This document shows, piece after piece, positions 517 through 63,150 of a stretch of DNA of 64,000 bases (its first letter is position 1; the number at the start of each line of letters is the position of its first letter). The notes beneath the pieces are model-generated. The model saw only the letters and a program-made list of their open reading frames with translations, had not been told where the DNA came from and searched no databases. The DNA lies in NCBI GenBank assembly GCA_026770705.1, contig JANJGN010000001.1, positions 152,892,001 to 152,956,000 of the forward strand. Direction: 5' to 3'. Both the position numbers and the translations under genes were made by a program. Source of the stretch: Isurus oxyrinchus. Taxonomy: Eukaryota.

Positions 517-679
517 GCAGCTAAAGTGACAACGTCATCCAACAACTTTCCTAAATACTATCAAACTATACGTACATTGTGCATTGATTCAGTGACAGTC
601 AATGACACCGGAAGTTTTACATGTTTCGCCAGAAATGATTTTGGTATGTCAAATGCCACAGTGTTTCTACAGATTATCG
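517..679 (+). CDS. KIT: KIT-family receptor tyrosine kinase, exon equivalent to KIT exon 5 (end of Ig domain 3)
   Basis: tatcag|GCA...ATC G|gtaaaa, phase 0 to 1. Peptide AAKVTTSSNNFPKYYQTIRTLCIDSVTVNDTGSFTCFARNDFGMSNATVFLQII resembles KIT ...[35 protein letters not shown]. Confidence 0.88.
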
Positions 680-4262: not shown

Positions 4263-4449
4263 CTGAAGGATATATAAAGTTGTTACCTCCAGAGAGCAGT
4301 GTGCATCATGTAAACATTGGAGAAAACCTTGTGCTAAATGTGGAGTTTGATGCCTATCCAGCTCCTGATCAGCAGTACTGGATTCACATGAATGAGACAT
4401 TACTTAACACGTCGGACCATTTTATTAAATCTGCAAAAGTGGGAAACAG
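4263..4449 (+). CDS. KIT: KIT exon 6 equivalent (Ig domain 4, first half)
   Basis: caaccag|CT...AAC AG|gtacct, phase 1 to 2. EGYIKLLPPESSVHHVNIGENLVLNVEFDAYPAPDQQYWIHMNETLLNTSDHFIKSAKVGNR resembles KIT KGFINIFP...[27 protein letters not shown]. Confidence 0.92.
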
Positions 4450-5841: not shown

Positions 5842-5957
5842 ATACATTAGTGAACTGCATGTGGTTCGAGTAAAGGGAACAGAAGGTGGAATTTATACAT
5901 TTTTTGCTTCAAATTCTGATTCCAATTCATCAGTTTCATTTGATGTGCACATAAACA
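5842..5957 (+). CDS. KIT: KIT exon 7 equivalent (Ig domain 4, second half); absent from the ORF track
   Basis: catag|A TAC...AAC A|gtaagt, 116 bp, phase 2 to 1. [38 protein letters not shown] versus KIT [26 protein letters not shown]. The D4 homotypic-contact motif R-x-K-G-T-E is retained. Confidence 0.95.
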
Positions 5958-8200: not shown

Positions 8201-8643
8201 CATGTTTCCTCTGCATCTCATCATTTTCTGGTGTTCATCCATCTGATGTTATGATCCCTATTCCACTCCTTCCTTGTACATTTCATCATTTTATGTACAG
8301 TTTCTTTCACCTTAATATCTTCCCTGACTTTCTCACATATGAAGACTGTATATGGTGAATATGATAATAGATATTATTTTATATAATATAAATATATATA
8401 TTTACTGCATCATTCTAATCTTGCTTTGTAATTAACTAGATTGCAAAATGACTTAACTAGAAGCTGATTATGTACAACATATCTGTCTCATGCAACAATA
8501 TTGGTAACAGCTAAAAACACTCTGATTTGATTCTCACCATAAAATTTTACTATTCATTAATATAATACGCAACATTGACTCTCAGATATCTTCAATGTGC
8601 TGTCAAGAACACCAATAATGTTGTTTATTCTACTATATTGCAG

Positions 8644-8758
8644 GCAGCCCGGAGATAATTACTATTGAAGAACCCAAGCCAGGTCACGTTCGATGTGTAG
8701 CAATAGGATTTCCAAAGCCAAAAATAAAGTGGCTTTATTGCCCTGGACCACAGAAACG
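8644..8758 (+). CDS. KIT: KIT exon 8 equivalent (Ig domain 5, first half); absent from the ORF track
   Basis: ttgcag|GC...AAA CG|gtaagg, 115 bp, phase 1 to 2. SPEIITIEEPKPGHVRCVAIGFPKPKIKWLYCPGPQKR versus KIT [38 protein letters not shown]. Confidence 0.95.
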
Positions 8759-9080
8759 GTAAGGAATATGACCTGTAATTCATCTTATTTAAATGATGGA
8801 AATGGAGGTTAAGGATGTCCTTGCATTTCTTTTCAGAACAATAAAATTTATAATAAATTTGTCATTGTAGTGTCCAATGTTTTGGTGATGTTACTGTTAG
8901 AATGTTCTGGGAGGCTCGAGTTGCGCTTGTTAGTGTATCTGTAATTGACTTATATGAAGTACGTTAGCAGAGAGAACGGAATAAAACAAGTAGATTATAT
9001 TATTAGTGCAAAAAAGCATGAAATAAAAGATTAAAGTGTGCAATTTTTATGGCAATATTTTTCTTGAAAATACACATACA

Positions 9081-9203
9081 GGCCGGGATTTTCTGGCCTT
9101 GCTGTGCGGGAACCGCTGTGTGCGGGATGTGGTGGACCAGCCAAAAGACTTCCGGCAGGGCTGGAAAATCCAGGCGGTGGGGGAAGTTGGAAAATCCTGG
9201 CCA
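9081..9203. mobile_element. Small MITE
   Basis: ACA|ggccgggattttc...gaaaatcctggcc|ACA: TIRs with a 3-bp TSD. Confidence 0.7.
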
Positions 9204-10151
9204 CAGATATTAACACCATAATGGTGCACAGTGATCACCATGTTCTATCCCAACTGTCCCATTTAAGTATTTACAAACTAGCTAAACCTGCATTGTCAAT
9301 TTTCCTGATAGTAACAAACTGACTTAGGTTTGTAAATGGATCAGAGAAAGAGTTATTGCAGTCTGAATTAATGGATGTTTTTGTTATGCATTTTGTAATG
9401 ACTTTTCTGCCTTTATTAGCCGAGATCCTTAAGATTGCGCTCATCGGTGTGTAGCCAGCTCCTTACAGCTTTGACAATATCTTCATTTGCCCTGATAGCT
9501 AGATAACCAAGGTAACAAATAGAGAATGTTTTAATACTATTGCATCTATCCTGTGCCTCATCTACAATATCTTACTCATACCTTCAAAAGAGAAAAGCGT
9601 CACAGCATCAAAATTTCAAACTTCAGCTAAGTAAATTTATTGAACAGCAATAAGCTAAGTAATAGTAATACAAGATTAATATATTTAGAGTAAATGTACT
9701 ACACATCCTTCTGAAAAACAAAACAATAAATGTCCCTGATTTCTATTCAAAGGTATTATTTTATAATAACCTTTACATATCCAATTTTTATAGTTTACTA
9801 CCAGTGCAATCTAAGCACCCTATCCCACCTCTTTGAACAGCTCAGACTGACTCAGTGATTTAACAATCCACAGTCACAAACACCCACCAAATCGTTGTGC
9901 ATTTGAGTTGCCTTCACTTAATTTTGAAAGTAGCTGCCAGTCGTACATATAATTAAATATGCGATGCAATAGGTTTTTGTTTGAATTGCCCTGGTTTCCT
10001 TTTCCAGCTGGCAACCTCGAAGACAATTGAACAATTTTCACAATATTTGTATTGTGTTAGGTTGTGGACTTGTTTTTGAATGCAGGCAGTTTTTAAATTG
10101 CCTTGCCTGGCATTTCTGTCACAGTTCTTTGGTAATAGCCCCTGCAGAGAA

Positions 10152-10801
10152 CTTTGGAATGTGCCAGTATGCAACACTCGGTCGGGGACAACTCTTTGCG
10201 CTGGAAGACCAACAAGTTACGGGCAGACCAAAGAGTGTCTTTCGGGCGAGGTGATGATCCTTCAGCTGCAGTTGATGTTTGTCTCGGTGTGTGTCCCTGG
10301 GAACAGCCCGTAGAGCACAGAGTCTTGTGTCACAGAACTGCTCGGGATGAACCTCGACAGAAACCACTGCATCTCTCTCCAGACCTTCTTTGCAAAGACA
10401 CAATCTACAAGGAGGTGAACAATGGGCTCTTCCCCACCACAGCCACCTCGACGGGCAACGTGCCGAGGGGATGAGACTCCTGGCATGTAGGAAGGATCTG
10501 ACAGGGAGGGCTTCTGAGGGATGCACTAAAGCTTGGGGCAGCTGCCGCAAAGGCGCAATGGGGAAGGGTCGCTGCCTAAGATCTTTCTGCCACAGTGCAC
10601 CGAGGGGCTGGGAACTGTGAAGAGCCCCTCGGGATGTACAGCTCAAAATGAATGTGTAATATTCATTGCTTGTACTGATACACCTTGTGATTCATGTTGT
10701 AAAAGTTGAACCTGATTGTATTTTTGTGATGGTGATTTTGAAATGGTTTGAAATGTTGTTGAAGATATTTTATGATTAAAGTATATTTTTGCAAAAAAAA
10801 G
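10152..10801. mobile_element. Tx1/L1-clade LINE 3' end with 5' inversion
   Basis: Minus part encodes a CCHC-like region (CGGEEPIVHLLVDCVFAKKVW). Plus part encodes the ORF2 C-terminus LRDALKLGAAAAKAQWG, then a 3' UTR and A-tail. TSD agcccctgcagagaa at 10137-10151 and 10802-10816. Confidence 0.85.
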
Positions 10802-11037
10802 AGCCCCTGCAGAGAAAAACACAGAAGGGCCAATTTAGCTATTTTCCCAGGTTTTCTACTGACCTTTCACCTAAATTAATGGGTGAGGTTAGGGTTAGGA
10901 GGGGGAGATCATGAGGACCTAATGAAAGTCCTCTCCCTTACGTATTGTCACTCAATTAAAGGAAATGTTATCCAAGCTAAACTAAACAAGAATTCTTCAT
11001 TTTAGCAGATTGTCATTGGCCATATTATTAGAAATAT

Positions 11038-11250
11038 TTGGAATACTCTACCCCAAAGAGCTGTGGATGCTAAGTCATTGAATATATTCGAGACAGAGAT
11101 AGATAGATTTTTGGATACTGAGGAAATTGAGGGAAATAGCGATGGAGCAGGAAGGTGGAGTTGAGATCAACCATCATCTTGAGTGGTGCAGCAGGCTTGA
11201 AGGGCCAAATGGATTTACTGCTGCTCCTATTTCTAATGTTCTTATGTTCT
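11038..11250 (+). mobile_element. CR1 LINE 3' end abutting the KIT exon 9 acceptor
   Basis: agagctgtggatgc...gagatagatagatttttgg...gcaggcttgaagggccaaatgg...ctcctatttctaatgttcttatgttct, homologous to the CR1 ends at 14290-14520, 36150-36340 and 48700-48800. Confidence 0.85.
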
Positions 11251-11256
11251 TTACAG

Positions 11257-11447
11257 GTGCTCAGACACACCCATGGCAACAGCAGAAGAATTACACTGGA
11301 CAAACAGAATAATACACCGGCCCCATTTTGGAAGGATTGAAGTAGAAAGCATTCTTAACACCAAGGAACTGAACAGCAACATTACGGTGGAGTGCCTGTC
11401 ATCCAACAGTGTTGGCGAGAATCGTGCAATCTATCAGATGAAAGGAG
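11257..11447 (+). CDS. KIT: KIT exon 9 equivalent (Ig domain 5, second half)
   Basis: ttacag|G TGC TCA...GGA G|gtaata, phase 2 to 1. CSDTPM...PHFGRIEVESILNTKELNSNITVECLSSNSVGENRAIYQMKG versus KIT CSAS...[32 protein letters not shown]. Confidence 0.92.
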
Positions 11448-11709
11448 GTAATAACATTCTAAATGAAAGTACATATCAAACCCAAGTAAATAATGCTTTT
11501 GCATTAAAATACTGAGAATATGGCGTGCCTTAATGATTTGTGGGTTGAAATTGCACTTTATGATATTACCAACAAGGTGAAGGATGAAATCTCTGTGTTA
11601 TTTTAGCACAATGCAATTTTGTGGTGTCTGGAAAATGCCTGAACAATTTAATACAGTACATTTCCCTGCCATTTAACTCTTCTGCTCTGTGGACCTCCTG
11701 ACTTTTTTC

Positions 11710-14289: not shown

Positions 14290-15875
14290 TCGCCACAAGA
14301 CCAGAAAAGGTAGGAGCAGAAGTAGGCCATTCAACCCATCGAGTCTGCTCCACCATTCAATGAGATCATGGCTGATCTGATAATCCTCAACCCCAATTTC
14401 CTGCTTTTTTCCCATAACCCTTGATTCTCTTACTGATTTAAATCTGTTTATCTCAGCCTTGAATATACCTAACAGCCCAGCCTCTACAGCCCTCTGCGGT
14501 AACGAATTCCACAGATTCATTACCCTCCGAGAGAAGAAATTCCTCCTCCCTGTTTTAAATGGGTGACCCCTTACTCTGAGATTATGCCCTCTGGTCGTAG
14601 ATTCTCCCACAAGGGGAAGCAACCTCTCAGCATCTACCCTGCCAAGCCCCCTAAGAATCTTATGGCAGAATATTGCCATTGGTGGGCGGTGGTGGGCCTG
14701 ACACACCAACATGTAAAATGATGCGTGATGACATCAGGCGTGCATCCTGGCGCCATCCTGAGTCATTTCGGTATTTTGTTCAGCGGGCGCGCGCCGGAGG
14801 GGGCATGAACCCGCCAAACTGTCAGTGACCTATTAAGGCCATTAAAAAAGTAATTAAAGTTGTTGACAACACTGCCTGTTCAACCTTAAGGTTGGCGGAC
14901 AGGCGAAGAGCCCAGACGGCCTTCATGTTTTTCAGAAAACTTCATCCACGGGTGGGATGACGTACCTGAAGCTTGTATAAAATAAATAAATAATTTTCTT
15001 GACTTCACAAATATGTCCCAGCTCATGTGACACTGTCACATGAGGGGACATGTTTAAATAATTGTTTACTTTATTATTTAAAATTTTTTATGATCTACAT
15101 AATCTCCTTGCCTCAGGGGAATTGCTGCACTCTTTCGCATGCATGCGCAAAACAGTGCAGGCCCAGAATCTCCCTCCTCCCCCCACCTGCACAGGTAGTG
15201 TCGAGTGCTACGAAATGCTTATTACGCTGGGCAGGCCTTAATTGGCCCGCCCACATAAAATATAGCCGCGCAGCCAACCGATCGGCTCCGCGCTCGCCCC
15301 TGCCTCTTCCACCTAGTCTGCCCGACATAGGTGACATTCAGCCTTATATGTTTTAATAAGGTTGCCCCTCATGCTTCTAAACTCCAGGCCCAACCTACTC
15401 TGCCTCTCCTCATAAGAAAATCCCTCCATACTCAGGATCAACCTAGTTAACCTTCTCTGGACTGCCTCCAGTGCCAGTATATTTTTCCTTAGGTAAGGGG
15501 ACCAAGGCTGTTCACAGTTTTCTAGGTGTGGTCTAATTAGTGCCTTGTATAGTTTTATCAAACTTCCCTTTTTTATGCTCCATTCCCTTTGAAATAAAGG
15601 CCAACATTCCATTTGCCTGAACCTGCTGAACTTGTATGTTAGCTTTTTGTGATTAATGCATGAGGACTCCCAAATCCCTCTGTGCTGTAGCTTTCTGCAG
15701 TCTTTCTCCATTTAAATAATGTTCAGCTCCTCTATTCTTCCTGCCAAAGTGCATAACCTCACATTTTCTGACATTATATTCCATTTGCCAAGTTTTTTGC
15801 CCACTCACTATACCTGTCTATATCCCTCTGCAGACTCCTTATGTCATCATCGCTATTTGCCTTCCCACCTATTTT
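14290..15875 (-). mobile_element. CR1 LINE 3' part, interrupted by a MITE at 14664-15344
   Basis: LYKALIRPHLE...WSPYLRK..LALEAVQRR and VDAERLLPLVGES.TRGH...WNSLPQRAVEA motifs. The sequence joins across the MITE (aagaatcttat/tatatgtttt). Confidence 0.88.
14664..15344. mobile_element. MITE family B copy
   Basis: TAT|ggcagaatattg...acattcagcct|TAT, with the family hairpins. Confidence 0.8.
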
Positions 15876-18800
15876 GGAGATAGTTTGCTGCCAGTTGCTT
15901 ATTTGTACTCAGCAGCCTCATCTCTGTTTGGGGCTTTATTCTTCACTTTTCCAGGCTTCACTTCAGGATTCATTGGTGTCTCCAAGGCATCCAGAGGATT
16001 CAGACCATGTGGACCCTTTCAGAGATCAGACACCCTTCCGTTGCCCTGGTAATGGGGATTGTGGTCTCCACTGGTGGCACCTCCTCTGAGGAGGAAGAGA
16101 GGGGCAGAAAGGGGAGGATGCTAGGTGTCCCAAAGCAGCTTCCAGGGGAGCAACCAGAGGGAGGAGAGGCGCGGGCACAAGGGGTGCAGGACCAGCAGGA
16201 ATTCCTAGAAGGAAGGAGCTGCAGAAGACATCACTATCCTGCTGCCAGGGTTTACAGGCAGTGATGCAGCTACCTCAATATGTCTGAAGTGCAATGCTGA
16301 AGAAGGCGCTGCCTCTCAAGGGAGACCGTGACCTCCATTTGTCAGATGATTGGGCCTGAGATCAGCTCCAACTGTGTGGGTGGACACCCCATGACTGCGG
16401 CTCTGATTGTCACAGAGGCCCTCAACTTCTATGCCTCCTGCTCTTCCAGGGATCAGTGGGGGATCTGTGTGGAGGGTCCCAATCAGATGTCTACAGTTGC
16501 ATCAAGCTGGTGACAGAAGCTCTGTTCAGGCGAGTACTGACCTTTATTCTTTACCGTACGGAGGAGGCCAGCCAGGCTGAGCGAGCCAGAGGCTTTGCCA
16601 CGATTGCTGGGTTCCCCTGTGTCCAGAGTGCAATAAGCTGCATGTATGTGACCATCAAGGCGCCAGTGAGTCAGCCGGGTGCCTTCGTCAACAGGAAGGG
16701 ATTCCACTCCATGAACGTGCAGATAGTGTGTGACCACAGGATGCAGATTCTGCAAGTCTGTGCAAGGTACCCTGGCAGTTCTCATGACGCGTATATCCTG
16801 AGACACCGCCAGGAGCTGAATGGATGGCTGCTGGGTGACAAGGGCTATCCCTTGAAGAGGTGGCTCATCACGCCTCTCTGCCACCCAAGAACAGAGGCAG
16901 AGCAGCGTTACATTAGGAGCCATGTCTCCACACGGGTGGTGGTAGAGAGGACCATGGGTCTTCTCAAGATGCACTTCCGATGCCTGGACCATTCAGGGGT
17001 GCACTACAATACATCCAGAGCGGGCGTCACTGATAGTGGTTGCATGCTGCACTCTCCACAATCTGGCACTGGCAAGCGCGGACCCACTGGAGGAAGAGGA
17101 TCTTGACGCAGGTCCACAGACCACAGAGGATGGATCCAATGGTGAGTCCAAAGACGGGCACGATGAGGAGAACACTGAGGGTGTGGAGGCAGACCTCGGT
17201 AAGCTCTAGGGAGGTAGGGACACCAGAGACGCCTTGATCCAATGTTCCTTCAGCTAGGCTACCAAAGATCTGCTTCCACCTCATGCCAGGGCTGCTGCCT
17301 CCATCCTGGATGTCTGAAATGACACTTTCATTTGCACCCAAATTCCACTCAATGCCTGTATGTCCAGCATTACATACTGGTCTACCCTGCACCAGAAAGA
17401 AAAAAGGTGAAGCATACTCAGACCATCAGAAGCAAAGCAAATTTAATGTTATTGTCACACTGAAAGCAAATGCCATTACCATTATTGGTCCACATCAGCA
17501 GACATATAAACCAAACATAAATGAACAGAAAATCACCTGTGAACTATCCCTTTTGTGCTCATGGTGCCTTTAACTTACATTTCTGAGTGTTAAGTCTTGG
17601 TACATCCCCTCCCCATACCCCTCACACACACACCCCACCCCCCCCCCCCCTCCCCACCCCCCCAATGCTGGCAGCGGCATTGGGAGCAGCTTGCTGACTC
17701 TGGTGTCTTGTTGACCTTGATGACCTTAGCGGTCATCCTCTGGTCATTGAATTTGTGCTGGCCCTGCCTTGGACAGAGTGGCCTGTGCCAGGGCTGGCAT
17801 CTCCCCAGTCATCACAACCTCATCAGATGCCATGGTCACTGGTGGGGGGTTGGGGGGGGTGGTGGTGGGCGGAGGAGCTGCTGCCGTCATCCAGAGCACC
17901 CTGAGAGGAGCCTGCAGAGACAACAAGTGGTTGGTGCACCCACATGAGGTCGCCCTGGACCTCCCTGCTCACCATTGATGGACCGGCACCTAGTTGGGAT
18001 ACTGGTGCCTCATCCATCTCCCAGGAGGGCTTGCAGTTCCATGCACAAACCCGGAAACCCCTCTTTCTATTTCTTGAGCTGCCTCTCCATGAGAGTCACC
18101 ACTCTCTCAACGGAGGAGGCAGTGCGCTTTGTCATGAAGGTCAACACAATGCTCATGCTCCACATGGACCCCTCAAAAACGGAGACCCTGGCACACAGGC
18201 CCTCATGGATCTCCGCCAGATCCTCCCACACATCCTGCCGGACATCCAGCATCTGCCACCTAATGGACAACTCCAGAGGCTCATCATCTACCTTCGACTG
18301 AGCATTGTCTTGGTCTCCAGCTAACCTCCAACTGCCAGTGCCCATGGGCACCCTCTGCCTCAGCCTGCACCTCAATCGAGTGTGAAGTGCCCTCACCAAT
18401 GTGCACCAACATTCTAGCCATCAATCTAATGCCCATCCGGGTGCTGGTATTTGCACTGGTGCCTGCTTCAGAGAGCGGGTGTGACGCGCGCAAATGATGC
18501 CTAGTGGTCCTTCGACGTCAGGGATGGCCCTTCAGGGTCCAGAGAGTGAGTGCGTGCTGGCAAATCTAAAAGGGAGAACAAGGTCATGTCACTAGTTAAA
18601 GCCTTCACACTGTCACTGTGCATGCCAGGCACGCTGGTGAGACAATGGAGATCTGCATCATGGTGCCATCGTCTTTCAATGATCAATGGGGGCTCCAGGT
18701 TTGAGACTCCAATCAATGAAGAGACTACACTAGAATGGTTGCACAATCAGAAACCCTCACCTCTGTGCACTGCACTCTTGCCTTTGTCTGGCACCCCCGC

Positions 18801-19179
18801 CTCTCCATGCCCGGTTGCATGGGAAGCATGCTGGCTCTCTAGCTCTAGGGTGTCCTGCTCGAATCTGGTGAGCGGCAGCAGTTGGGCTGCCCTCTGCCTG
18901 TCCGTGACTTCTCCAATTAGTTATGGCTTGTCTTCTCCTGAATGGACAGAGGAGCATTGATTAGTCCACTCTCTACCTGCAGCGCCATTGCATCCTGGCC
19001 AACCCCAGCTGAGGAACACCTTGCAGGGCACATCTGAATCGTGGCCCTCAAGCTGCAAGGCACTCAGTCCAAGCAGCCAGCCTGAAATCATGTCAGGGGC
19101 CGATAGCAGCGACGAGCCGTTTCCCATCCGCTCCCAGGCCTGCCAACCATACCCGCCCGCCGATCTCAAAATTCTGGCT
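15872..19179 (+). mobile_element. PIF/Harbinger transposon copy 1 (left end deleted)
   Basis: HARBI1-like transposase pseudogene on + and Myb/SANT gene remnants on -. Right TIR aaaattctggc. Inverted homolog of 44726-48542. Confidence 0.9.
16007..17275 (+). pseudogene. Harbinger DDE transposase, disrupted
   Basis: GFATIAGFPCVQSAI, FVNRKGFHSMNVQIVCD, ARYPGSSHDAYIL, LLGDKGYPL, RVVVERTMGLLKMHFRCLD. In-frame stops and frameshifts upstream. The GAID-type first Asp appears altered. Confidence 0.88.
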
Positions 19180-33289: not shown

Positions 33290-36200
33290 CAAACTTAAAG
33301 AAAAAGCATATAGCTACACAAAGATGGGTGGCAGGTCAGAAGATTGGTAAAAATAGAAAGAACAGCAAAGAATGACAAAAAGATTATTGAGGAAAAAATT
33401 GGAGTATGAGAGAAAGCTAGCTAGAAATATAAAGGTGGATGGTAAGAGTTTCTATAGATATTTAAATAAGAAAAGAGTTAACAAAGTGAACGTTGGTCCT
33501 ATAGAGAGGGAGCCTGGGGAATTGATAATGCAAAGTAGGGAGATGGCGGATGAATTAAACAGGTATTTTGCTTCGGTCTTCAATATATAGGACATGAGTA
33601 ACATCCCGGAAATAGCTGTAAATCAGGCAATGGAAGGGAGGGAGGAACTCGGGGAAATTACAATCACCAGGGAAGTGGTATTGAGCAAATTATTGGGGCT
33701 GTGGGCTGACAAATCCCCAGGTCCAGATGGATTTCACCCTAAGTTCTTGAAAGAAACGGCTAGTGAGATAGTTGATGCATTGGTTTTAGTTTTACAAAAT
33801 TCCCTCGATTCAGGGAAGGTTCAATTAGATTGGAAAATAGTGAATATAGCTCCTTTATTCAAAAAGAGAGGGAAACAGAAAGCAGGAAACTATAGGCCAG
33901 TTAGGGAAGATGCTATAGGCTATTATTAAAGATGTTATAGCAGAGCACTTAGAAAAATTCAAGGCAATCAAGCAGAGTCAACATGGGCCAGAAACTTTGG
34001 GTTGGCGTAAAATATTGCACGGTGATGTCAGGCGTGCATCCCGACGTCACCATGCGTCATTTCGATCTTTAGTTTGGCGGGCGCGCACTGAAATCAGCTG
34101 CGCGCCCGCTGAACTGTCAAAGGCCTATTAAAGCCATTTAAAAACTAATTAAAAGGATTAACAGAGCTGCTTGTCCCATCTTAAGGTTGGCGGGCAGGCG
34201 AAGAGCCCAGACGGCCTTTAAATTTATCATAAAACCTCATCTACGGGTGGGATGAGGTTTCATGAAGGATTTATAAATCAAGTAAATTTTTTTGTTAAAA
34301 ATCATTGACATGTCCAGCTTATGTCCCAGTGTCACATGAGGGGACATGTCTGAATTTTTTTTTCTTTATTTGAATTTTTAATAATGAAATTAAACTCCCT
34401 GAGGCAGTTCTGTGCCTCAGGGAGATTTCTGCACTCTTTCAAGTGCAGGCCCCAACTCTCCCTCCTCCCCCAACCTGCACAGGGAGTGCTCAGCGCTTCC
34501 AGGTGCACGTCACGCTGGGCAGGCCTTAATTGGCCCGCCCATGTAAAATGGCGGTGATCGGCTGCACGCCCACCTGCGCCCGCTCAGCACCCCCTCGACA
34601 GGGAGAAAATTCTCCACATGATTTTGTAAAACAGATCAGGTGGATGAAGTTTCCAAAAAAATCCACCTATGGATGAAGTTTCCAAAAAAATGCAAATTTT
34701 CGCCTGCCCGCCAACCGTTAGATTGGATGGGCAGCGAAAAATTCAAGTTAATTGGTTATTTAATGGCCTCAACAGGCCTTTTAATTGTCAGCAGGCACTG
34801 CCGGCTCCAGGACATGCCCGCTGACCGAACTATCACAAGACTGCACGTTGAAATCATTTCACACTCGAGCGGGTAGGGCGTGCGCCTGCCCGCCAAGCGA
34901 AAATTTCTGCCCCATGTTTAACCAGTTTATTGGAGTTCTTTAAAGGAGTCACATGTGCTGTGGATAAAGGGAAACCAGTGAATGTACTGTACTTAGATTT
35001 CCAGAAGGCATTTGAAAAAGTGCCACATAAAAGGGTATTGCAGAAAATAAAAGCTCATGGTCTAGGGGGTAACAAATTGGCATACTGGGATAGATAGGTT
35101 CTTGATTGGTAAGGGGATCAAAGGTTATGGGGAGAAGGTGGGAGAATGGGCTGGAGAAACTTATCAGCCATGATTGAATGGCGGAGCAGACTCGATGGGC
35201 TGAATGGCCTAATTTCTGCTCTTATGTCTTATGGTCTTATGGATAGAAGATTGGCTAGCTAACAGGAAGCAGAGATTTGGCATAAATGGGTCTTTTTCTG
35301 GTTGGCAGGATGTGACGAGTGGTGTGCCACAGGGATTAGTGCTGGGGCCTCAACTTTTTACAATTCATATAAATGACTTGGATGAAGGGATTGGAAGTAT
35401 GGTTGCTAAATTTGCTGACAACACAAAGATAAGTAGGAAAGTAACTTGTGAAGAGGACATAAGGAGGCTACAAAGAGATACAGGTAGGTTAAGTGAGTGG
35501 GCAAAGATCTGGCAAATGGAGTGTAATGTGGGAAAATGTGAAATTGTTCATTTTGACAGGAAGAATAAAAAAGAAGCTTATTATCTAAATGATGAGAGAT
35601 TGTGAAGCTCTGAGATTCAGAGGGATCTGGGTGTCCTAGTGCATGAATCACAAAAGGTTAGTGTGCAGGTACAGCAGATAATTAGGAAAGGTAATAGAAT
35701 GTTATCATTTATTGTGAGAGGAATTGATTACAAAAGTAGGAAGGTTATACTTCAGTTGTACAGGGCATTGATGAGACCACATCTGGAGTATTGTGTACAG
35801 TACTGGTCTCCTTATTTAAAGAAAGATGTAAATGCATTAGAAGCAGTTTCGAGAAGGTTTACTAGACTAATATCAGGAATGGGTGGGTTGTCTTATGAGG
35901 AAAGGCTAGACAGGTTAGGCTTCTATCCACTGGAATTTAGAAGAGCAAGAGGTGACTTAATTGAAAACTTTAACATCCTGAAGGGTCTTCACAGGGTGGA
36001 TGTGGAGAGGATGTTCCCTCTTGTGGGAGAATCTAGAACTAAGGGTCACTGTTTAAAAATTGGGGGTCGCTCATTTAAGACAGATATGAGGAGAATTTTT
36101 TTTCTCTCAGAGGGTCGTGAGTCTTTGGAACTCTCTTTCTCAAAAGGCAGTGGAAGCAGAGTCTTTGAATATTTTTAAGGAATACCTAGATTGGTTCTTG

Positions 36201-39923: not shown

Positions 39924-40308
39924 TGAGTTCGAGTCCAAGAAAGAGTTGAAATATAAGCTGGTTTAAGGTGTGTGTGTGGGGGGCGGAGAGATAGAGAGAG
40001 AGAGAGAGAGGTGGGGGGGGTGTGGTTGTATGGACAAACAAGCAGTGATAGAAGCAGATCATCAAAAGATGTCAACGACAATAGTACAATAGAACACATA
40101 GGTGTTAAAGTTAAAGTTGGTGATATTATCTAAATGAATGTACTAATTAAAAATGGATGGTAGGGCACCCAAGGTATAGCTCTAGTGGGGGTGTTTTTTT
40201 TAATTTTTTTTTATAATGGAAATAGGTGGGAAAAGGAAAATCTTTATAATTTATTGGAAAAAAAAAGGAAGGGGGAAACAGAAAGGGGATGGGGATGGAG
40301 GAGGGAGC

Positions 40309-41673
40309 TCACGACCTAAAGTTGTTGAATTCAATATTCAGTCCGGAAGGCTGTAAGGTGCCTAGTCGGAAGATGAGGTGTTGTTCCTCCAGTTTGCGTT
40401 GGGCTTCACTGGAACAATGCAGCAAGCCAAGGACAGACATGTGGGCAAGAGAGCAGGGTGGAGTGTTAAAATGGCAAGCGACAGGGAGGTTTGGGTCTTT
40501 TTTGCGGACAGACCGCAGGTGTTCTGCAAAGCGGTCGCCCAGTTTACGTTTGGTCTCTCCAATGTAGAGGAGACCACATTGGGAGCAACGAATGCAGTAG
40601 ACTAAGTTGGGGGAAATGCAAGTGAAATGCTGCTTCACTTGAAAGGAGTGTTTGGGCCCTTGGACGGTGAGGAGAGAGGAAGTGAAGGGGCAGGTGTTAC
40701 ATCTTTTGCGTGGGCATGGGGTGGTGCCATAGGAGCCGGTTGAGGAGTAGGGGGTGATGGAGGAGTGGACCAGGGTGTCCCAGAGGGAGCGATCGCCACA
40801 GAATGCCGATAAGGGGGGTGAAGGGAAGATTTGTTTGGTGGTGGCATCATGCTGGAGTTGGCGGAAATGGCGGAGGATGATCCTTTGAATGCAGTGGCTG
40901 GTGGGGTGATAAGTGAGGACAAGGGGGACCCTATCATGTTTCTGGGAGGGAGGAGAAGGCGTGAGGGCGGATGCGCGGGAGATGGGCCGGACACGGTTGA
41001 GGGCCCTGTCAACGACCGTGGATGGAAAACCTCGGTTAAGGAAGAAGGAGGACATGTCAGAGGAACTGTTTTTGAAGGTAGCATCATCGGAACAGATGCG
41101 ACGAAGGCGAAGGAACTGGGAGAATGGGATGGAGTCCTTACAGGAAGCGGGGTGTGAGGAGCTGTAGTCGAGGTAGCTGTGGGAGTCAGTGGGTTTGTAA
41201 TGGATATTGGTGGACAGTCTATCACCAGAGATTGAGACAGAGAGGTCAAGGAAGGGAAGGGAAGTGTCAGAGATGGATGAGGTGAAAAAGATGGAGGGGT
41301 GGAGATTGGAAGCAAAATTAATAAATTTTTCCAGGTCCCGATGAGAGCATGAAGCGGCACCGAAGTAATCATCGATGTACCGGAGAAAAAGTTGTGGAAG
41401 GGGGCCGGAGTAGGACTGGAACAAGGAATGTTCCACATACCCCATAAAGAGACAGGCATAGCTGGGGCCCATGCGGGTACCCATAGCCACACCTTTTATT
41501 TGGAGGAAGTGAGAGGAGTTGAAGGAGAAATTGTTCAGCGTGAGAACAAGTTCAGCCAGATGGAGGAGAGTAGTAGTGGATGGGGATTGTTTGGGCCTCT
41601 GTTCGAGGAAGAAGCTAAGGGCCCTCAGACCATCCTGGTGGGGGATGGAGGTGTAGAGGGATTGGACGTCCAT
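40309..41673 (-). CDS. Penelope-like RT plus GIY-YIG endonuclease (partial, Neptune-type)
   Basis: DVQSLYTSIP, GVAMGTRMGPSYA, RYIDD, FLDL, linker CPRKRCNTC, NLVYCIRCSQCGLLYIGETKR...RFAEH. Confidence 0.92.
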   Translation of the reverse strand: MDVQSLYTSIPHQDGLRALSFFLEQRPKQSPSTTTLLHLAELVLTLNNFSFNSSHFLQIKGVAMGTRMGPSYACLFMGYVEHSLFQSYSGPLPQLFLRYIDDYFGAASCSHRDLEKFINFASNLHPSIFFTSSISDTSLPFLDLSVSISGDRLSTNIHYKPTDSHSYLDYSSSHPASCKDSIPFSQFLRLRRICSDDATFKNSSSDMSSFFLNRGFPSTVVDRALNRVRPISRASALTPSPPSQKHDRVPLVLTYHPTSHCIQRIILRHFRQLQHDATTKQIFPSPPLSAFCGDRSLWDTLVHSSITPYSSTGSYGTTPCPRKRCNTCPFTSSLLTVQGPKHSFQVKQHFTCISPNLVYCIRCSQCGLLYIGETKRKLGDRFAEHLRSVRKKDPNLPVACHFNTPPCSLAHMSVLGLLHCSSEAQRKLEEQHLIFRLGTLQPSGLNIEFNNFRS

Positions 41674-44600
41674 GGTGAAGAGGAAGCGGTTGGGGCCAGG
41701 GAACAGTCTTAGCAGGCCTTTTAATTGTTAGCGGGCACGCTGCCAATTCCAGTGCATGCCTGGCGACTGAAATATCGCGTGGCTGCGCACTGACGTCAGG
41801 AAACTCGCCCAATGTCAACACATCATTTTATGCTCAAGCAGGTCGGGTGCATGCCCACCCGCCGAGGTGAATATTTTGCCCCATGGCTCTGAAAACCTGG
41901 GCCTTAATGCCTGGCACTATGAGGTGCCAGTCTTCATTGCAGGTGAGTAAATCGTCTACCATACTATGCCATGGTCTGGCTACATTTCAGTACTTCTGGC
42001 ATATATTGTATGTAGACACAATTCTTTCCATGTCTTTGTAGGTGTCTATCCAATACACAGCTAATCTGGCTCTGTGCTTACACTTCTCCATTCCTATGTG
42101 GTCTTCATGTACCTCCTGAAGAAGTTCTGTGTGCATCATTTTGGGTATGATTATTCTGGATCTAGCCAGCAGTATAGCATCTTCTAGTGAGATATCATCT
42201 CTGTTTGGCCTGTACTGGTGTATTGCTATATCTTATCAGGCCATTCCTGGATCACTTGTTGAGTGAACATCTGTAACTCTTCCTCTTTACTGGTCTCATC
42301 TCTAATTTGACTTAGTTTCAGCAGTATTATGTTCACTAGGTGATGGATCTTTACACCTACATTTTTTATCTCATTTTTCTCATACAGATGAGATTGGGCA
42401 TTTCTCTTCCTGGCATGTATTTCAAAAGGGAATTGTAACTGCGAAGCCTCAAGAGTAACCTCTGTGGTCTTGCTGGTATTTTACATCATTTTTCTTGTGG
42501 ATCTGCTCCAGTGAATGATGATCACTCTCCACTATGAACTTTCTCCCGTAGAGATTTGTATGGCATTTCTCACATCCATACATGACTGCCAAACATTCTC
42601 TTTCTACGTTGGTATATCTGGTCTCAGCTGATGTTAGAGCTTTGACTGAAATGCTATTGGTTTTCCCTCTTGTACCAGGGCCGCATCCAGTCCTTTTGTA
42701 TAAGCATCTGCTTGTAGATTGACAGGTTTCTCTCTGTTGCATTATGACCAACTTGTCTCCTTGCATACTACTTCTTTGATGCTGAAACTCCCCTCGTGTG
42801 ACTCTGACCACTATACTCAACATCCCCTCTCTTGTAGCTTTGAGCTGTGTTCTGGCATGAGAGGTATGAAAGAACTTATGTGCTGCATCAAATAAAGGTA
42901 ACTTCTCTATTCTTTCTTGTCTCTTGGAACTTCCATCCTAGAGATGGCTGTGACGTTTTCAGGACTTGCTTGGCTGCAGCAGGTGTGTACATCATATCGA
43001 AGAGTCAGCATTCCGTCACCTTCAAAATGCATTTGTCTCCATTTAGCTTGATTCCAGCTTTCCTGGTTCTCTCTATAGCTAAGTGTAGATGGTGGTCATA
43101 ATCCTATTCATCCACACCACTGATCTGGATATCATCGGCGATGCCACTGCTCCATTGCATCCTTTATATGTCTCCTCTACTTTCTGCTGGAACTTATCAT
43201 GGTTCACTTTAAGGCCAAAAGGCAGACACAGGAATTTGTTATATCCAAAGGGTGTATTGAATGTTGTCAATAATGAGCATCTGGTGGTTGTTGGCTGCGT
43301 GCTCTAAAACCTGCACCAATATGGCACCCATGCAAATTGTCCCACATATGTGTGCATTTGCCACAGAGGCCATTTTGACCACTAAAAGTATTTGAAACAG
43401 CCAAAAAACAGCCACAAATGATCCCAATTTCTCACCCTAGGTTTTTCTACACTTGGTTGGATTTTTGAAGAGGACATTTATTATCTTTTTCAGCACTATA
43501 GACCTAAAAAAGATAATAAACTAAATTGCTTTCATGTATCAGATTTCTGAAATAAGGAAGAGGCAATACACTGCAATTAATGAGGATATTCTCTTGTACG
43601 TTATCTTGCAAATTACAACCCACATCATATTCTACAGTCTGCTGGTTTCTTTAATACTGAGTTTGACTTTTAACAAAGAGGCAAAGAGGGAAAGACTTCT
43701 ATTGCTTGCCAGGCATCCATGTGTTTCCCAGATGCTATATGATCTGCGTGTATAAAGCCATGAAGCAGGAAATGGGAGGATGGGATGGGGAAGGTTTAGC
43801 CATTTCGGGAGAGCTGAAGGGAACTGAAAGTTTAAGTGAATGAAAGCACAAGAGCAGAAGTGGCATTTTATATTAATAGTCACATTTGAAGGGGAAATAA
43901 GCAGTGGGCAAAATCTTCCACTCTGAAGCCTAAGTTCAGTGGCAGGTGCAAAAGTAGGAGGGATCTCCACTCGGGAGCAGGACAATTTTGCGCTGGTCAG
44001 CTTATTAAATATGTATTCGCGAGGAGCTCGCCAGTTCTTGCAGTGGGGGCAGTCAGGAAGTCGCCATCCTTATCGTTACATCATGGGTTCCAAGGTCCGG
44101 ACGCCATATTTAAAGGACACACAGACAGCTTGCACTATCCCTTCCGCCTTTGCCCAGCCACTGCTCCACTCTTCTCCTCTAACCCTTCCTTCCTTGGTCA
44201 TCCTCCATGCAATTTGTACTGTCACCACCCAGTCTCAAGCATGGGCTTCCATTTACATATGCTCCGCAAAGTGGTCAATGCAGCGGCAACTCGCCGTTAA
44301 TCATAGTAAGAGTCTACCTTGCCAGGTGCACGCCATTTATGTACAGCTGTAAAAATTAACATTCTAAGTTCCCCGGTAGTCAGAAATTAATTTGGTGGGG
44401 GGAATCTTTATTCGGGCAAGGTAGCATTTTAATGAGCATGCATGACATGTTAATGCATGCTAAAGGGTTTCCCGACATTGTTCGTCAGGAGGCTTGACCT
44501 GCCTATAATATCCCGAGAACAGAATTCCAAAAATTCATCCTGATGATGGGAAACTGATTTTTGGTCTTACGCCAAATTTTTGTCTTCCCGCGGCTAACGG

Positions 44601-44977: not shown

Positions 44978-46849
44978 ATGGAATCAAGTGCGGCTGGACA
45001 CGACGGGGGGAGGGAAAGTCAGGCGGGCACTCGGCCTCCCGCTTCTCTGAGTGCCTCGCCGTACTCCTGGAGGAGGTGGCTGCCAGGAGGGACACCCTTG
45101 TCTCCAGAGATGGGGGGAGGAGGCCACCACATCTCACAAGGAGGGCATGGGAGGAGGTTGCAGCACTGGTTAGCAGCCATGACGTGGTGCAGCGCACATG
45201 GTTGCAGTGCCGGGAGAAGTTCAATGACCTGCTGCGCTCAGGAACGGTGAGTACCGTATTGGCATGGATCAGTGTGCAGAAGTTTTAAGATCTGGCTGTC
45301 CCTCCTGTGGACCTCAGGGGCGCTAGAGTCTGAATGTCAACTGTCAGTGACGCCGGAGCTGGCCAAGGGGGTGAGCCCTAGCTGCTTGAACTGAGTGCCC
45401 TCCAGCTCCAGGGCTACAACTCAGATGTGCCCTGCGAGGTGTTCCTCAGCTGGGGTTGGCCAGGCTGCAATAGGGCTGCAGGTAGAGAGTGGACTAATCA
45501 ATGGTCCTCTGTTGTTTCAGGAGAAGACGAGCCATAACCATTCAGAGGGGGCACAGACAGGTGGAGGGCAGCCCAACCTGCTGCTGCTCACCAGATTCAA
45601 GCAGACACCCTAGAGCTAGAGAGCCGGCACACTCCACATGCAACGTGGCGTGGAGAGGCAGGGGTGCCAGACGGAGGTAAGAGTGCAGTGCACAGAAGTG
45701 AGGCTTTTGGATTGTGCAACCATTCTAGTGTAGTCTCTTCATTGATGGGAGCCTCGAACCTGGATTCCCCACTGATCATTGAAAGACAGTGGCACCATGA
45801 TGCAGATCTCCATTGTCTCACCAGGGTGCCTGGCACGGACAGTGATAGTGTGATGACTTTAAATAATGACATATTGTTGCTCCCCCTTAGATTCGCCAGC
45901 ACACATTCCCTCTCTGGACCCTGAAGAGCCACCCCTGACACTGGAGGACCAATGGGCTTCATTTGCACCTGCGTCACACTCGCTCCCTGAACCAGGCACC
46001 AGCACAGATACCAGCACCTTGGTGGGCATTAGATTGGCGACTAGAATGTTGGTGCACATTGGCCAGGGCACTTCACACTCGCTTGAGGTTCAGGCGGAGG
46101 CAGAGAGTGCCCAGGGTACCAGCAGTTAGAGGACTGCTGGGGACCAGGACAATGCTCATTCGAAGGTTGATGATGAGCTTTGAGTCATCCATTTGGCAGC
46201 AGATGTTGGATGTCCAGCGAGATCTGCAGGAGGATCTGGCGAAAATCCATGAGAGCATGTGCACCATGGTCTCTATTGAGAAGGAGTCCATGTGGAGCAT
46301 CAGCATTGTGTTGACCTTCATGGCCAAGCGCACTGCCTCCTCCATTGAGAGGGTGGCAACTCCCATGGAGAGGCAGCTCCAGGGACAGAATCAGGAGTTC
46401 CTGGGGTAGCGCTCGAATCTGCAAGCCCCCACACAGGCACTAAGCTCAGGTGGCCAGTGCCAGTGTGGGAAATGATTGAAGCACCCAGTATCCCAGTGAG
46501 GTGCCCATCCGTCAATAGTGAGCAGGGAGGTCCGAAGCGACCACACGTTGGCGCACGAGCTGCCTGTCGTCTCTGTGGGTTCCTCTCAGTGTGCTGTAGA
46601 TGATGGCAGCCAGCTCCTCCGCCAGTAACCGCCGCATCTGATGAGGCTGTGATGAAAGCGGAGATGCCAGCCCTGGCACTGGCCGCTCCCTCCCAGGCGG
46701 GGCCAGCACAGGCTCCATGGGCTAGAGGACAACTGCCAAAGCCATCTAGGCCAACAGGACAGTGGAGTCAGCAGGCTGTTTCCGATGTCTGTGGCAGTGA
46801 TGGAGGGGGAGGGGCACCAAGACGTAGCGCTCGGAAACATAAGTTATAA
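44978..46849 (+). pseudogene. Harbinger Myb/SANT (trihelix) DNA-binding gene, 3 exons (44978-45246, 45521-45676, 45891-46849), disrupted
   Basis: RRAWEEVAALVS...RTWLQCREKFNDL|gtgagt; tttcag|EKTSHN...QTGGGQP...|gtaaga; cttag|... Frameshifts and stops are present. Confidence 0.8.
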
Positions 46850-47179
46850 AAGCACCATGAGCACCAGAGGGACAGTTCATGGGTGATTTTCTGTTCATTT
46901 ATGTTTGCTTTATATGTCTGCTGGTGTGGACATCAACACTAGTAATGGTCATGCATTCAATGTGACAATAACAGTAAATTTGCTTTGGTTTTGATGGGCT
47001 GAGTATGCTTCACCTTTACTTTAGGTGCAGGGTGCACCAGTATGTATTGCTGGATGTGAGTGGCTCGGTACTTTATTGCACAAATACTGAGTGGACTTTG
47101 GGTGCAAATGAAAGGGTCATTTCAGACATCCGGGATGGAAGCGGCAGACCTGGCATGTGGTGGAAGCAGATTTTTGGCA

Positions 47180-48079
47180 GCCTAGCTGAAGGAGCATTGG
47201 ATCAAGGTGTGCCTGGTGTCCCTGCCTCCCTGAAGGATACAGAGGTCTGCCTCCATGCCCGCAGTGTTCTCCTCACCCTGTTCCTCTTCTGACTCACTAC
47301 TGGATCACTACTACTACCATCTCTGTGGCCTGTGGAGCAGCGTCAAGATCCTTTTCCTCCAGTGGGTCCAATTGTGGAAAGCGCAGCATGCAACCACTAT
47401 CAATGACACCCACTCTGGGGGTATTGTAGTGCACCCCTGAACAGTCCAGGCATCGGAAGTGCATCTTGAGAAAACCTATGGTTCTCTCTATCACCGCCCT
47501 TGTGGAGCCATGGCTGGCCTCCTCCATACTGTAAAGAATAAAGGTTAGTAAACGCCTGAACAGAGCTTCTGTCACCAGCTTGACGCAACTGTAGACATCT
47601 GATTGGGAGACTACACACAGATCCCCCACTGACCCCTGGAAAGAGCAGAAGGCATAGAAACTGAGGGTCACTGTGACCTTCAGCGCCTCTGGCATGAGGT
47701 GTCCACCCACACAGTTGGAGCTGATCTCAGGGCCAATCGTCTGACAAATGGAGGTCACTGTCTCCCTTGAGAGGCGGAGCCTCCTTCGGCACTGCACCTC
47801 AGGCATATTGAGGTAGCTGCATCGCTGCCGGTTAACCCTAGCAGCAGGATAGTGGCATCTTCTGTGGCCCCTTCCATCTTGGACTTCCTGCTGGCCCTGC
47901 GCCCCTTGTGCCCGTGTCTCTCCTCGCTCTGGTCGCTCGCCTGGAAGCTGCATTGGGACACCTGGCATCCTCCCCCTTCTGCCCCTCTCTTCCTCCTCAG
48001 AGGAGGTGCCACCAGTGGACACCACAATCCCCATTACCAGGGCAACGGAAGGGTGTCTGATCCCTGAAAGGGTCCACAT
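47180..48079 (-). pseudogene. Harbinger transposase with central deletion
   Basis: N-terminus CRRRLRLSRETV...LKVTVTLSFYA joined directly to STRAVIERTIGFLKMHFRCLD. The catalytic middle is missing relative to copy 1. Confidence 0.85.
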
Positions 48080-48679
48080 GGTCTGAATCCTCTGGATGCC
48101 TTGCAGACACCAATGAATCCTGAAGTGAAGTCTGGAAAAGTGAAGAATGAAGCCCCAAACAGAGATGAGGCTGCTGAGTACAAATAAGCAACTGGCAGCA
48201 AACTATCTCCAAAACTCCTCTCTCCTCACACTGGCAATGCTGCTGACCCTTTTTATCCTGACCTTGGGTGAGGTTTGTGAAATTGTCGGCTGCCTGCCTG
48301 CCCGTTTGCCTGTGCGACAAGTGCAAAATCTCATGGGCAACGTAAAATCTAATTGCCTTTTTAATGGCCTTAATTGGCCTCATAATTGATGGCGGGTGCG
48401 GCTGTGAATCCCGCACGCGTCCAGCGACCGAAATATCGCTCAGGTGCGCAATGACTTCAGGACGCTTGCCCGACATCAACACGAGCTATTTTACTCTCGA
48501 GTGGGTCAGCACACACCTACCCGTTCAGCAAAAAATTCTGTCCACGGCCCTCCTACCCACCAGGTCTCCTCCCTGCTCAATTGATAATCTACATGCATGA
48601 TGATTGCATAAGTACAATTTAATATAAACCAATAGTTCTTCCTATCTGATCCCTATGATTGTAACTGCATGGGTACATA

Positions 48680-52053: not shown

Positions 52054-52564
52054 AAAAAGTATTTTTCAGCAATACTTAAGTCCAGGGCCTTGGACTGGGA
52101 GGGATTGGGCAGGTTAGGGAGGGGGATTGGGGTGGTGGGTTTAAGGCTGCAGGCGGGTAGGAAGAAAGGGCGGGTTCTATCATCAGGGTATATCCATCCA
52201 TCGACAAAGGGCAGCTCCCGAAGATAGAACAGCACCCACCCCTTCCCGTCCTTTGAAGAGATTATATAAAAAATCAGGCTGCCCACTCCCGCCCAACTAC
52301 ACACGCCAAACATTTCATGGCGTGGGCTATGTATTATCAGGGCCAATTAGCCTGGTAACAAACATAACTGACCCTTAATTATCTGTTTAAATATGGCAGG
52401 CAGGCTGTCAAATTTCAGCGCCCACCTACCCCTCATATTATGGGTGTGAGCTCGGGGGTGGGTGGGGAGGTGGTGGGTGGGCTCCCGCCCTATGTGGGCT
52501 CCCGCCCTATTTTACCTGTCCCCCCCTAAAAACGCACCCAGCGAAGGCAGGTAAAATGCAGCCC

Positions 52565-59833: not shown

Positions 59834-60785
59834 CCACTTAAGGAAATATTAGGTCAGATGACCAAAAGCTTGGTCAAAGGCGTAGATTTTAAAAAGTATC
59901 TTAAAGGAAGAGAGAGGAGTAGAGAGGCGGAGAGGTTTAGGGATGGAATTCCAGAACACTGATCCTTGGCAGCTGAAGACATGGCTGCCAATAGTGGAGT
60001 GATTAAAATAGAGGATATACAAGTGGTGAGAATTTGAGGAGAAAACATAGAATACATGGTTAGGGCAGCATGTAACTTTCCCTCCAGAATAACTCAAAAC
60101 ATGTTTTGCTCAATTGGAAAAATTGCACCTCATTATGACCCCTTTCCAAGTGGAAAACAGGGACAAAAATGAATAACTTTACAAGACCATATCCTGCATC
60201 TCCAAGGACATGTGCAAGAGCCGTAAAAATGTCTGGGATGTACAGCCACCCACAACAGGCATTAGGGTCCCTTACCTATGCTAATGAGGAGCCTAATGCA
60301 TGTTTTTGGACGCCTCAGGAAAATTGAACTGCCCTGAACACTGGACTTTCTCTGCTGAGGTTTTGGGGCATGCATGGATAGTGATGTTAGCAGATTTGAA
60401 AGGGGGAGGCACATTACCAGAGGAGAGGGATTCATTAACAAGAGCAGCTAGCCCCAGGACCAGTAAGGGAAGTTGGATGGCTGTCAGCTTAATGGGAAAA
60501 GGACCAAGGGAGCAGGAATAGACAAGGTGAGCTCAGAAAGGACATGAGGGGGCATAGGGGAGAAACAAGAGAAAGATGTGAGTTCACAGTCAGGATGGGG
60601 GGAAGCTTGAGGAAGTTTGGCTTGACCTAAACTGTTTCCTGTCCATTTCTTTTTTGCTCCTTATTAGTCAATTTTGTTTCTTACCTTCAGGCAGATATGA
60701 TTAAATCTCCAGCAACTCCGCTGTCGTTCAGTCCTGGAAAATTGATGTGCTCTCAAACAAGAACTGTGCCGTAAAGAGATTTTTT

Positions 60786-61030
60786 TGTAATATCACTTTC
60801 ATGTTTGTAGTAATTGAAGGTATAGTCTTCCCTATTGTCTATCAGGGAGTCACATGACTGTTCTTGGAGACTCCAACTAATGAGCCCTAAGCACGGATAA
60901 TCCAGGGCAGGGGGACAGCGCATGGCTTTCTAGTCGAGGACCTTGATCAAGCATGTAGCTTCTGAAAAACTCTCTGTAATAAAGTCCTCTATTTCAAGTA
61001 GAAACCTGTCCAGTATATCAAATTATTACG
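60786..61030 (+). mobile_element. Probable solo LTR
   Basis: TGTAATA...TATTACG inverted termini, internal agtcacatgact palindrome and AATAAA (~60978). Confidence 0.5.
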
Positions 61031-61139
61031 ATGTTATAGCCCCTAATGCACTAGTACTTGTGTATCATTACTAGTACTTGTTTATTCGGTTTTACTTGCA
61101 AATTAAGGGGACTTATTTCACCAGTCCTTTCAGCCACAG

Positions 61140-62762: not shown

Positions 62763-63150
62763 GCTCCCTCCCCCATCCCCACCCCCTTTCTGTTTCCCCC
62801 TTTTTCCTTTTCTTTCCCTATAAATTATATAGATTTTTCTTTTCCCACCTATTTCCATTATTTTTAAATATTTTAAAATCTTTTATGCTCCCCCCACCCC
62901 CACTAGAGCTGTACCTTGAGTGCCCTACCATCCATTCTTAATTAGCACATTCGTTTAGATAATATCACCAACTTTAACTTTAACACCTATGTGTTCTTTT
63001 GTACCATTGTCGCTGACATCTTTTGATGATCTGCTTCTATCACTGCTTGTTTGTCTACACAACCACCTCTCTCTCTCTCTATCTCTCCACCCCCCCATAC
63101 ACACACCTTAAACCAGCTTATATTTCAACTCTTTCTTGGACTCGAAATCA

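Follow-up and report, generated by a model that had tools for sequence, protein, structure and literature searches.

Several described systems come close to the one analysed here. An AluY supplies the branch point, the pyrimidine tract and the acceptor of a CEP290 pseudoexon, and an L1 supplies part of the GPR143 branch point (PMC7951965); in mammals, transposable elements within 20 nt of acceptors are reported to be rare and often harmful (PMC3088655). In sharks, CR1-like LINEs are reported from the introns of more than 88% of whale shark genes (10.1101/443036), and a pair consisting of the HE1 SINE and the HER1 LINE has been described (PMC3747384). As for receptors, a soluble VEGFR2 form (PMC7356254) and the goldfish soluble receptor sCSF-1R (PMC4929537) are described as negative regulators, soluble KIT is named in PMC3980740, and NOTCH2NL is a lineage-specific partial duplicate that joins a receptor's first exons to a last exon derived from non-coding DNA (PMC6092419). 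A shark review names kit as a pigment-disorder gene and, in its accessible part, mentions no shark duplicate (PMC12204725).

The locus studied in this work touches both groups of systems. It lies in a stretch of 64,000 nt from Isurus oxyrinchus (GCA_026770705.1, JANJGN010000001.1:152,892,001-152,956,000, forward strand; hereafter the window), where a CR1-type LINE fragment ends directly before an exon of KIT type. Our reading, drawn from sequence, combines an acceptor built from a LINE tail with a partial KIT duplicate that is predicted to encode a secreted trap for stem cell factor, and as a whole we consider it fairly probable. Literature searches, mostly at the level of listings and abstract openings and mainly among subscription-free papers, found no paper on a LINE-derived acceptor of this kind and none on the KIT duplicate, which is already in the databases under automatic 'Kit-like' names only.

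Sequencing contigs from four of 24 runs, which span two species (organisms A and B), were compared with window positions 8550-11700, and only stretches covered by contigs count as evidence in what follows. Runs X1 and X15 belong to organism A, the species of the window, and X5 and X17 come from a single organism B sample; X1 and X5 are DNA runs, whereas X15 and X17 are presumed to be RNA. The proteins referred to below are P0001 (white shark full-length KIT), P0012 (basking shark KIT), P0013 (a white shark 'Kit-like' protein of 501 residues, XP_041039006.1) and P0040 (basking shark 'kita-like', XP_078404077.1). Exons are numbered 5 to 9 after the human KIT gene structure, and exons 1-4 of this copy fall outside the window. 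Exons 5-9 have canonical GT-AG ends and a single open frame throughout, and they are matched by shark KIT proteins, which marks their Ig domains as KIT-type. Exon 6 is 98% identical to the white and basking shark KIT proteins, and KIT is the best PDB match for exons 6 and 9, weakly so for exon 9 alone (E 0.03).

Table 1. Positions of the features discussed, in window coordinates
Feature	Position	Strand	Basis
KIT-type exon 5	517..679	+	tblastn, AG/GT ends
KIT-type exon 6	4263..4449	+	KIT matches, AG/GT ends
KIT-type exon 7	5842..5957	+	encodes V364, otherwise only in P0013 (one of eight proteins compared)
KIT-type exon 8	8644..8758	+	tblastn, spliced contigs, AG/GT ends
Unrelated high-copy retroelement fragment in intron 8, A-rich end, 15-nt target-site duplication	10137..10816		X1 contig joint
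5'-truncated CR1-type LINE fragment (end of reverse-transcriptase ORF, 3' UTR, 8-nt tail repeats)	~11033..11251	+	shuffles, homology, contig exits
CTAAT, best branch-point candidate, A at 11236 (-21)	11233..11237	+	motif scan
Five host bases TACAG, including acceptor AG (11255-11256)	11252..11256	+	loose ends at 11251, spliced contigs
KIT-type exon 9, last KIT-homologous exon of the window	11257..11447	+	tblastn, spliced contigs
Last exon T1, coding part, 66 residues, basic, no membrane helix	19272..19471	+	P0040 tail match
Last exon T2, coding part, completes the P0013 C-terminus	60691..60704	+	back-translated P0013 end
Solo-LTR-like segment, 5-nt flanking repeat, AATAAA at 60978	60806..61030		post hoc, no chance control

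The LINE tail and the exon 9 acceptor

Homology of the fragment to both longer LINE copies of the window starts at about 11033, as the stretch 11033-11100 beats 500 of 500 shuffles against each of them; an extension further to the left was rejected, the score of 10960-11032 being reached by 124-262 of 500 shuffles. The fragment encodes the end of a reverse-transcriptase ORF (18/31 residues identical to the copy at 14.1-14.7 kb, E 3e-12), is also linked to the copy at 36.1 kb, whose upstream ORF contains RVT_1, and closes with 2.6 copies of an 8-nt unit at 11231-11251. A short tandem-repeat 3' end instead of poly(A), together with 5' truncation, is characteristic of CR1 elements; the fragment has both, along with the homology to the end of the reverse-transcriptase ORF, and we presume from this resemblance that CR1 is the appropriate family name. 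The end of the tail is set by contigs from other loci (52 in X1 and 55 in X5), which exit it at 11251 into unrelated flanks, so that five host bases are left before exon 9. A search for a target-site duplication of the LINE returned only 3-nt matches. The initial annotation had thus correctly recognised a sense LINE whose tail ends beside exon 9, but both its borders move: the homology begins at about 11033 and not at 11038, and the tail runs to 11251 and not 11250, which shortens the gap from TTACAG to TACAG.

In organism B, two overlapping X5 contigs (records 29 and 30) span the LINE, its tail and exon 9. The LINE therefore sits at the same site in organisms A and B and its insertion is older than their divergence; the runs examined, which represent these two species, showed no empty site. 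With two differences in 199 positions against 22 in 863 for the remaining intron (P 0.29), the LINE shows no significant excess of conservation over its surroundings. A search for the tail motif gave zero matches in metagenome contigs and zero in viral contigs. The other retroelement of intron 8 behaves differently, since an X1 contig joins 10136 directly to 10802, with 15 letters fitting both sides, i.e., the site is empty in organism A; as this contig comes from the species of the window, the element is either polymorphic or confined to one KIT copy.

The acceptor beside the LINE is used in two species. Record 9 of X15 matches 8644-8757 and then 11256-11449 at consecutive record positions with no other letters, and record 16 of X17 shows the same join of exons 8 and 9, with 2 and 3 other letters. 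Skipping of exon 9 or use of another acceptor, the outcomes on which the initial annotation had made its claim depend, do not occur in the 15 of the 103 joint rows listed, and the spliced contigs of both runs use this very AG. Since the LINE fills everything from -6 to about -224, including the positions of the tract and of the branch point, any pyrimidine tract or nearby branch point must be LINE-derived, as had been proposed for both. By its position, the LINE tail is very likely the working tract of the exon 9 acceptor. There is no AG dinucleotide from -56 to the acceptor, and the 16/22 pyrimidines of the tail are no better than those of the gene's other six acceptors (14-17/22).

The position of the AG is old, because the residues at the exon 8/9 junction are identical in 10 of 10 cartilaginous fish proteins, and the left flank of the LINE still looks like a weak acceptor region, with 13/22 pyrimidines at 11008-11029 and a yUnAy motif at 10999. 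The simplest account is that the LINE would have landed 5 nt from this AG, replacing a weak native tract, and that its T-rich, pre-adapted tail would have served as a ready-made tract, so that the insertion was tolerated. As the tail is no richer in pyrimidines than other acceptors, toleration of a pre-adapted tail fits as well as the exaptation that had been suggested. CR1-like LINEs are frequent enough in shark introns for occasional acceptor-adjacent cases to be expected, and sense CR1 tails, which in sharks resemble acceptor signals, may be tolerated where mammalian elements are removed.

Whether CTAAT is the main branch point is, in our judgement, an even bet, with alternative yUnAy motifs at 11217 (-40) and 11244 (-13). 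The initial annotation had gone further and suggested that a change from CTTAT to CTAAT created the branch point; in the strong form of this idea, the acceptor was impaired when the LINE inserted and was then rescued by a selected change. CTAAT is indeed absent from the other tails of the window, of which there are four (at 14.3 kb on the minus strand, and at 35.2, 36.3 and 48.8 kb) and not the two counted before, and one of the four has CTTAT twice; in a family with thousands of members, however, zero out of four carries little weight. The position of the motif, -21, is a typical distance for a branch point. The rarity of transposable elements within 20 nt of mammalian acceptors (PMC3088655) also speaks for a damaging insertion. 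The proposal is nevertheless weak, because CTTAT itself already fits the yUnAy branch motif; in addition, chance rates in random 27-nt intron stretches are high (10.6% for CTRAY and 44.8% for yUnAy), CTRAY is found in just two of five other acceptors tested and missing from three, and contigs that break at 11222 (X1) and at 11219-11248 (X5) hint at further occurrences of the 30-mer in another context in these genomes. The organism B base at this motif is unreadable, as one difference in record 29 and three in record 30 are unlisted. We regard the rescue as unlikely, and selection for the T-to-A change as improbable to the same degree. In yet another explanation the LINE is a bystander, exon 9 being recognised through a branch point far upstream, in the old flank, or through exon-definition signals, with no need for the tail. 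The weak-acceptor-like left flank would agree with this, but some 20 AG dinucleotides separate that flank from the AG in use, and a distant branch point is expected to select the first AG downstream of it; this explanation we find very unlikely. One of the window's LINE tails, at 35213-35241, is nested within the reverse-transcriptase frame of another LINE.

The KIT copy and its last exons

The initial annotation called the exon behind the LINE KIT exon 9. It is a KIT-type exon, but the gene that carries it is probably not the canonical KIT gene, a point missed at the time. A membrane helix and the exons of a split kinase, which would follow in canonical KIT, are not found within the window, where exons 10-21 have no match in 11448-64000 (~52 kb, both strands; best E 1.4). 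Window exons 5-9 are identical to P0013 at 255/261 residues, compared with 248/261 for P0001 and 249/261 for P0012, and among eight proteins V364 is common to the window and P0013 only. P0013 differs from P0001 at 20 positions, 17 of them before the new tail, and is therefore no isoform of it; a Pfam search finds in P0013 Ig domains only. P0040 is built of exons 1-3 and 8-13, without exons 4-7, followed by a foreign tail of 66 residues, and it keeps the membrane helix and 72/258 kinase profile positions, i.e., it is kinase-truncated. As G497 is the state in all five outgroup proteins, with E in P0040, only V364 and the tails are diagnostic of the duplicate. Taken together, the window copy is very likely a truncated KIT duplicate and not full-length KIT. 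In white and basking shark alike, the short and the full-length protein are encoded on contigs of equal size within each species, which suggests that both genes lie on one chromosome.

Two last exons downstream of exon 9 were recognised through the database proteins. T1 matches the P0040 tail at 63/66 residues (E 4e-35), has a strong acceptor upstream, and finds in that tail its sole strong match among 1.8 billion representative sequences; a second match, P0041, was dismissed as repetitive sequence. For T2, the back-translated end of P0013 has an exact match once in the window, at 60691 (300 shuffles gave one match), preceded by a pyrimidine-rich acceptor in the correct phase, and the AATAAA at 60978 in the LTR-like segment may end this exon.

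The window copy is transcribed and spliced through exons 8-9, as contigs bearing its residues show. Over both exons the X15 contig shows no difference from the window, and its match continues for two bases past exon 9 (to 11449), for which a join to T1 is the sole fit among the known next exons. The X17 contig has three differences in exon 9, all of them listed, after which its residues are those of P0013, unlike P0001, and it matches one base beyond the exon, as a P0013-type join to T2 predicts. From these end points and the database models we infer joins of exon 9 to T1, in organism A, and of exon 9 to T2. Spliced in this way into foreign last exons, exon 9 would lead to a product with neither membrane anchor nor kinase; the hydropathy maxima of P0013 (1.03) and T1 (0.65), set against 2.92 for the KIT helix, indicate no membrane helix in either. 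Short protein fragments were also looked for, with no result.

Reading through the exon 9 donor (11448-11515) would append 21 residues before a stop codon and could give the protein a third kind of soluble end, with no support in the contigs listed. Elsewhere in the gene family, P0002 (basking shark) and P0008 (ray) are KIT isoforms without a stretch from exons 4-5, and the X15 contig, judged by its extent, would begin exactly at exon 6, fitting skipping of that type.

The LINE itself may be present in both KIT copies, for which there is a weak hint in contig depth and in one X1 contig that stops at 11444, just before the codon position of the G/E difference. Depth of the KIT intron contigs, which is no copy number, amounts to 1.26-1.86 times the joint-row median in X1 (eight rows, without the single-contig rows of 63.1 and 130.7, the KIT row and the multi-contig rows) and 0.78-1.65 times in X5 (10 rows, without two multi-contig rows). 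If the hint is right, what was claimed for the LINE tail would extend to full-length KIT.

Further elements lie elsewhere in the window. Penelope-like elements at 40260-41727 (minus) and 61107-62811 (plus), with reverse-transcriptase and GIY-YIG matches below curated cut-offs, are inverted relative to each other, 97% alike over 1445 nt and have long open frames; likeness and open frames point to a young family. The stretches 15872-19080 and 45378-48214 are inverted, degraded copies, 80-92% alike, of a transposon-like element that we presume to be Harbinger-type by resemblance; T1 lies just downstream of the first, and the inverted pair could mediate rearrangement. A degenerate CA/CACT-rich tandem repeat of ~3 kb occupies 52564-55533.

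History and predicted function of the probable duplicate

Between the window and P0013 there are six residue changes where 13.6 would be expected under neutrality (P 0.018, a rough figure, the expectation being taken from an intron divergence of 24/1062 on contigs that may mix copies, and gene conversion being able to mimic selection). The T1 tail, with 3/66 residues different, is at about neutral drift. Within each species the two KIT copies have species-specific residues in common, and conversion by intact KIT could account for the open frame without any selection.

The duplicate could accordingly be read as a transcribed pseudogene with cryptic last exons downstream, intact through youth or gene conversion. 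Its structure varies between species, in that the lamnid-type copy would join exon 9 to T1 or T2 whereas P0040 joins exon 13 to T1; its T1 tail looks neutral, the copies share the species-specific residues just mentioned, and the RNA-like contigs have low depths (6-8), which are no measure of expression. Against this stand five exons with an open frame and canonical splice sites, the deficit of residue changes, the retention of the copy-specific V364 in two species, and a stop codon in the last exon, where nonsense decay is not expected; on balance we consider a pseudogene the less likely, though a serious, alternative. Far less credible is that the window holds the sole KIT gene and that its intron 9 is very long and includes alternative last exons, which give rise to soluble isoforms as in sFLT1. 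The downstream search covered only 52 kb, and there is no full-length-type contig among the pieces listed, both of which would suit a single gene. In white and basking shark, however, a full-length protein exists beside a short one of different sequence, and it is the short one that the window groups with. Moreover, T1 comes after exon 13 in P0040, although the window has no exons 10-13 between 11448 and 19272. A sole KIT gene is for these reasons extremely unlikely.

Returning to a separate, functional duplicate, its structure was not conserved, as P0040, which lacks exons 4-7 and keeps the membrane helix, differs in this respect. Two scenarios could account for its history: either a single duplication preceded the basking/lamnid split, after which gene conversion acted and lamnids lost exons 10-13, or tandem duplication happened twice, each time setting a truncated copy in front of the same T1 sequence. 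Because T1 is shared, we lean towards the single duplication.

P0013 has all five Ig domains, lacks anchor and kinase, and aligns with full-length KIT at its N-terminus (exons 1-4 of the window copy being outside the window). For an unanchored ectodomain of this sort we predict secretion, and with it binding of stem cell factor or pairing with KIT. From its sequence, the duplicate probably yields a stable secreted protein; that this product dampens KIT signalling, by binding the ligand or pairing with KIT, is a tentative prediction by analogy, to which we give somewhat less than even weight. KIT is a regulator of pigment, mast and germ cells and of blood stem cells, and an antagonist, if real, would modulate pigment cells, germ cells or the formation of blood. 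The widest reading would have a dedicated KIT antagonist gene in mackerel sharks and, at the same time, CR1 tails acting across shark genomes as a supply of ready-made acceptor signals; as a joint proposal it is doubtful. Under it, duplication in the basking/lamnid ancestor would first have produced a kinase-dead receptor, and lamnids would then have lost the membrane exons, turning it into a secreted trap with new last exons, one of them ended by the LTR-like segment. A separate gene for the outer part of KIT would, if true, be a natural heritable regulator in the white/mako lineage. KIT reads and variants in white and mako sharks would then divide between two near-identical copies.

Comparison with known systems

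The shark acceptor resembles the CEP290 and GPR143 cases in that a retroelement provides core acceptor elements. Those are new or disease pseudoexons, whereas here the exon and the position of the AG are old and the AG belongs to the host; the element, moreover, is a sense LINE with a T-rich tail, unlike either of them. Next to the CR1-like LINEs described from sharks (10.1101/443036, PMC3747384), the fragment is of the same make, i.e., 5'-truncated, intronic, and consisting of the end of a reverse-transcriptase ORF with short tail repeats. What is unusual, relative to these and to HER1, is its place 5 nt from an acceptor in use.

Among the receptors, sVEGFR1, sVEGFR2, shed soluble KIT and goldfish sCSF-1R share with the predicted product an Ig ectodomain without anchor or kinase and the logic of a ligand trap. 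These decoys, sCSF-1R of goldfish included, arise as isoforms or by shedding from the gene of the receptor itself, whereas the shark trap is predicted and likely comes from a separate copy. The nearest relatives of that copy are P0013, its likely ortholog by identity over exons 5-9 and by the same T2 end, and P0040, which shares T1 with it and, unlike the window, keeps exons 8-13. The closest parallel in origin is NOTCH2NL, likewise predicted to be secreted; it differs in receptor class and lineage, and its function has been tested and activates the pathway, so that the effect of the shark product could go either way.
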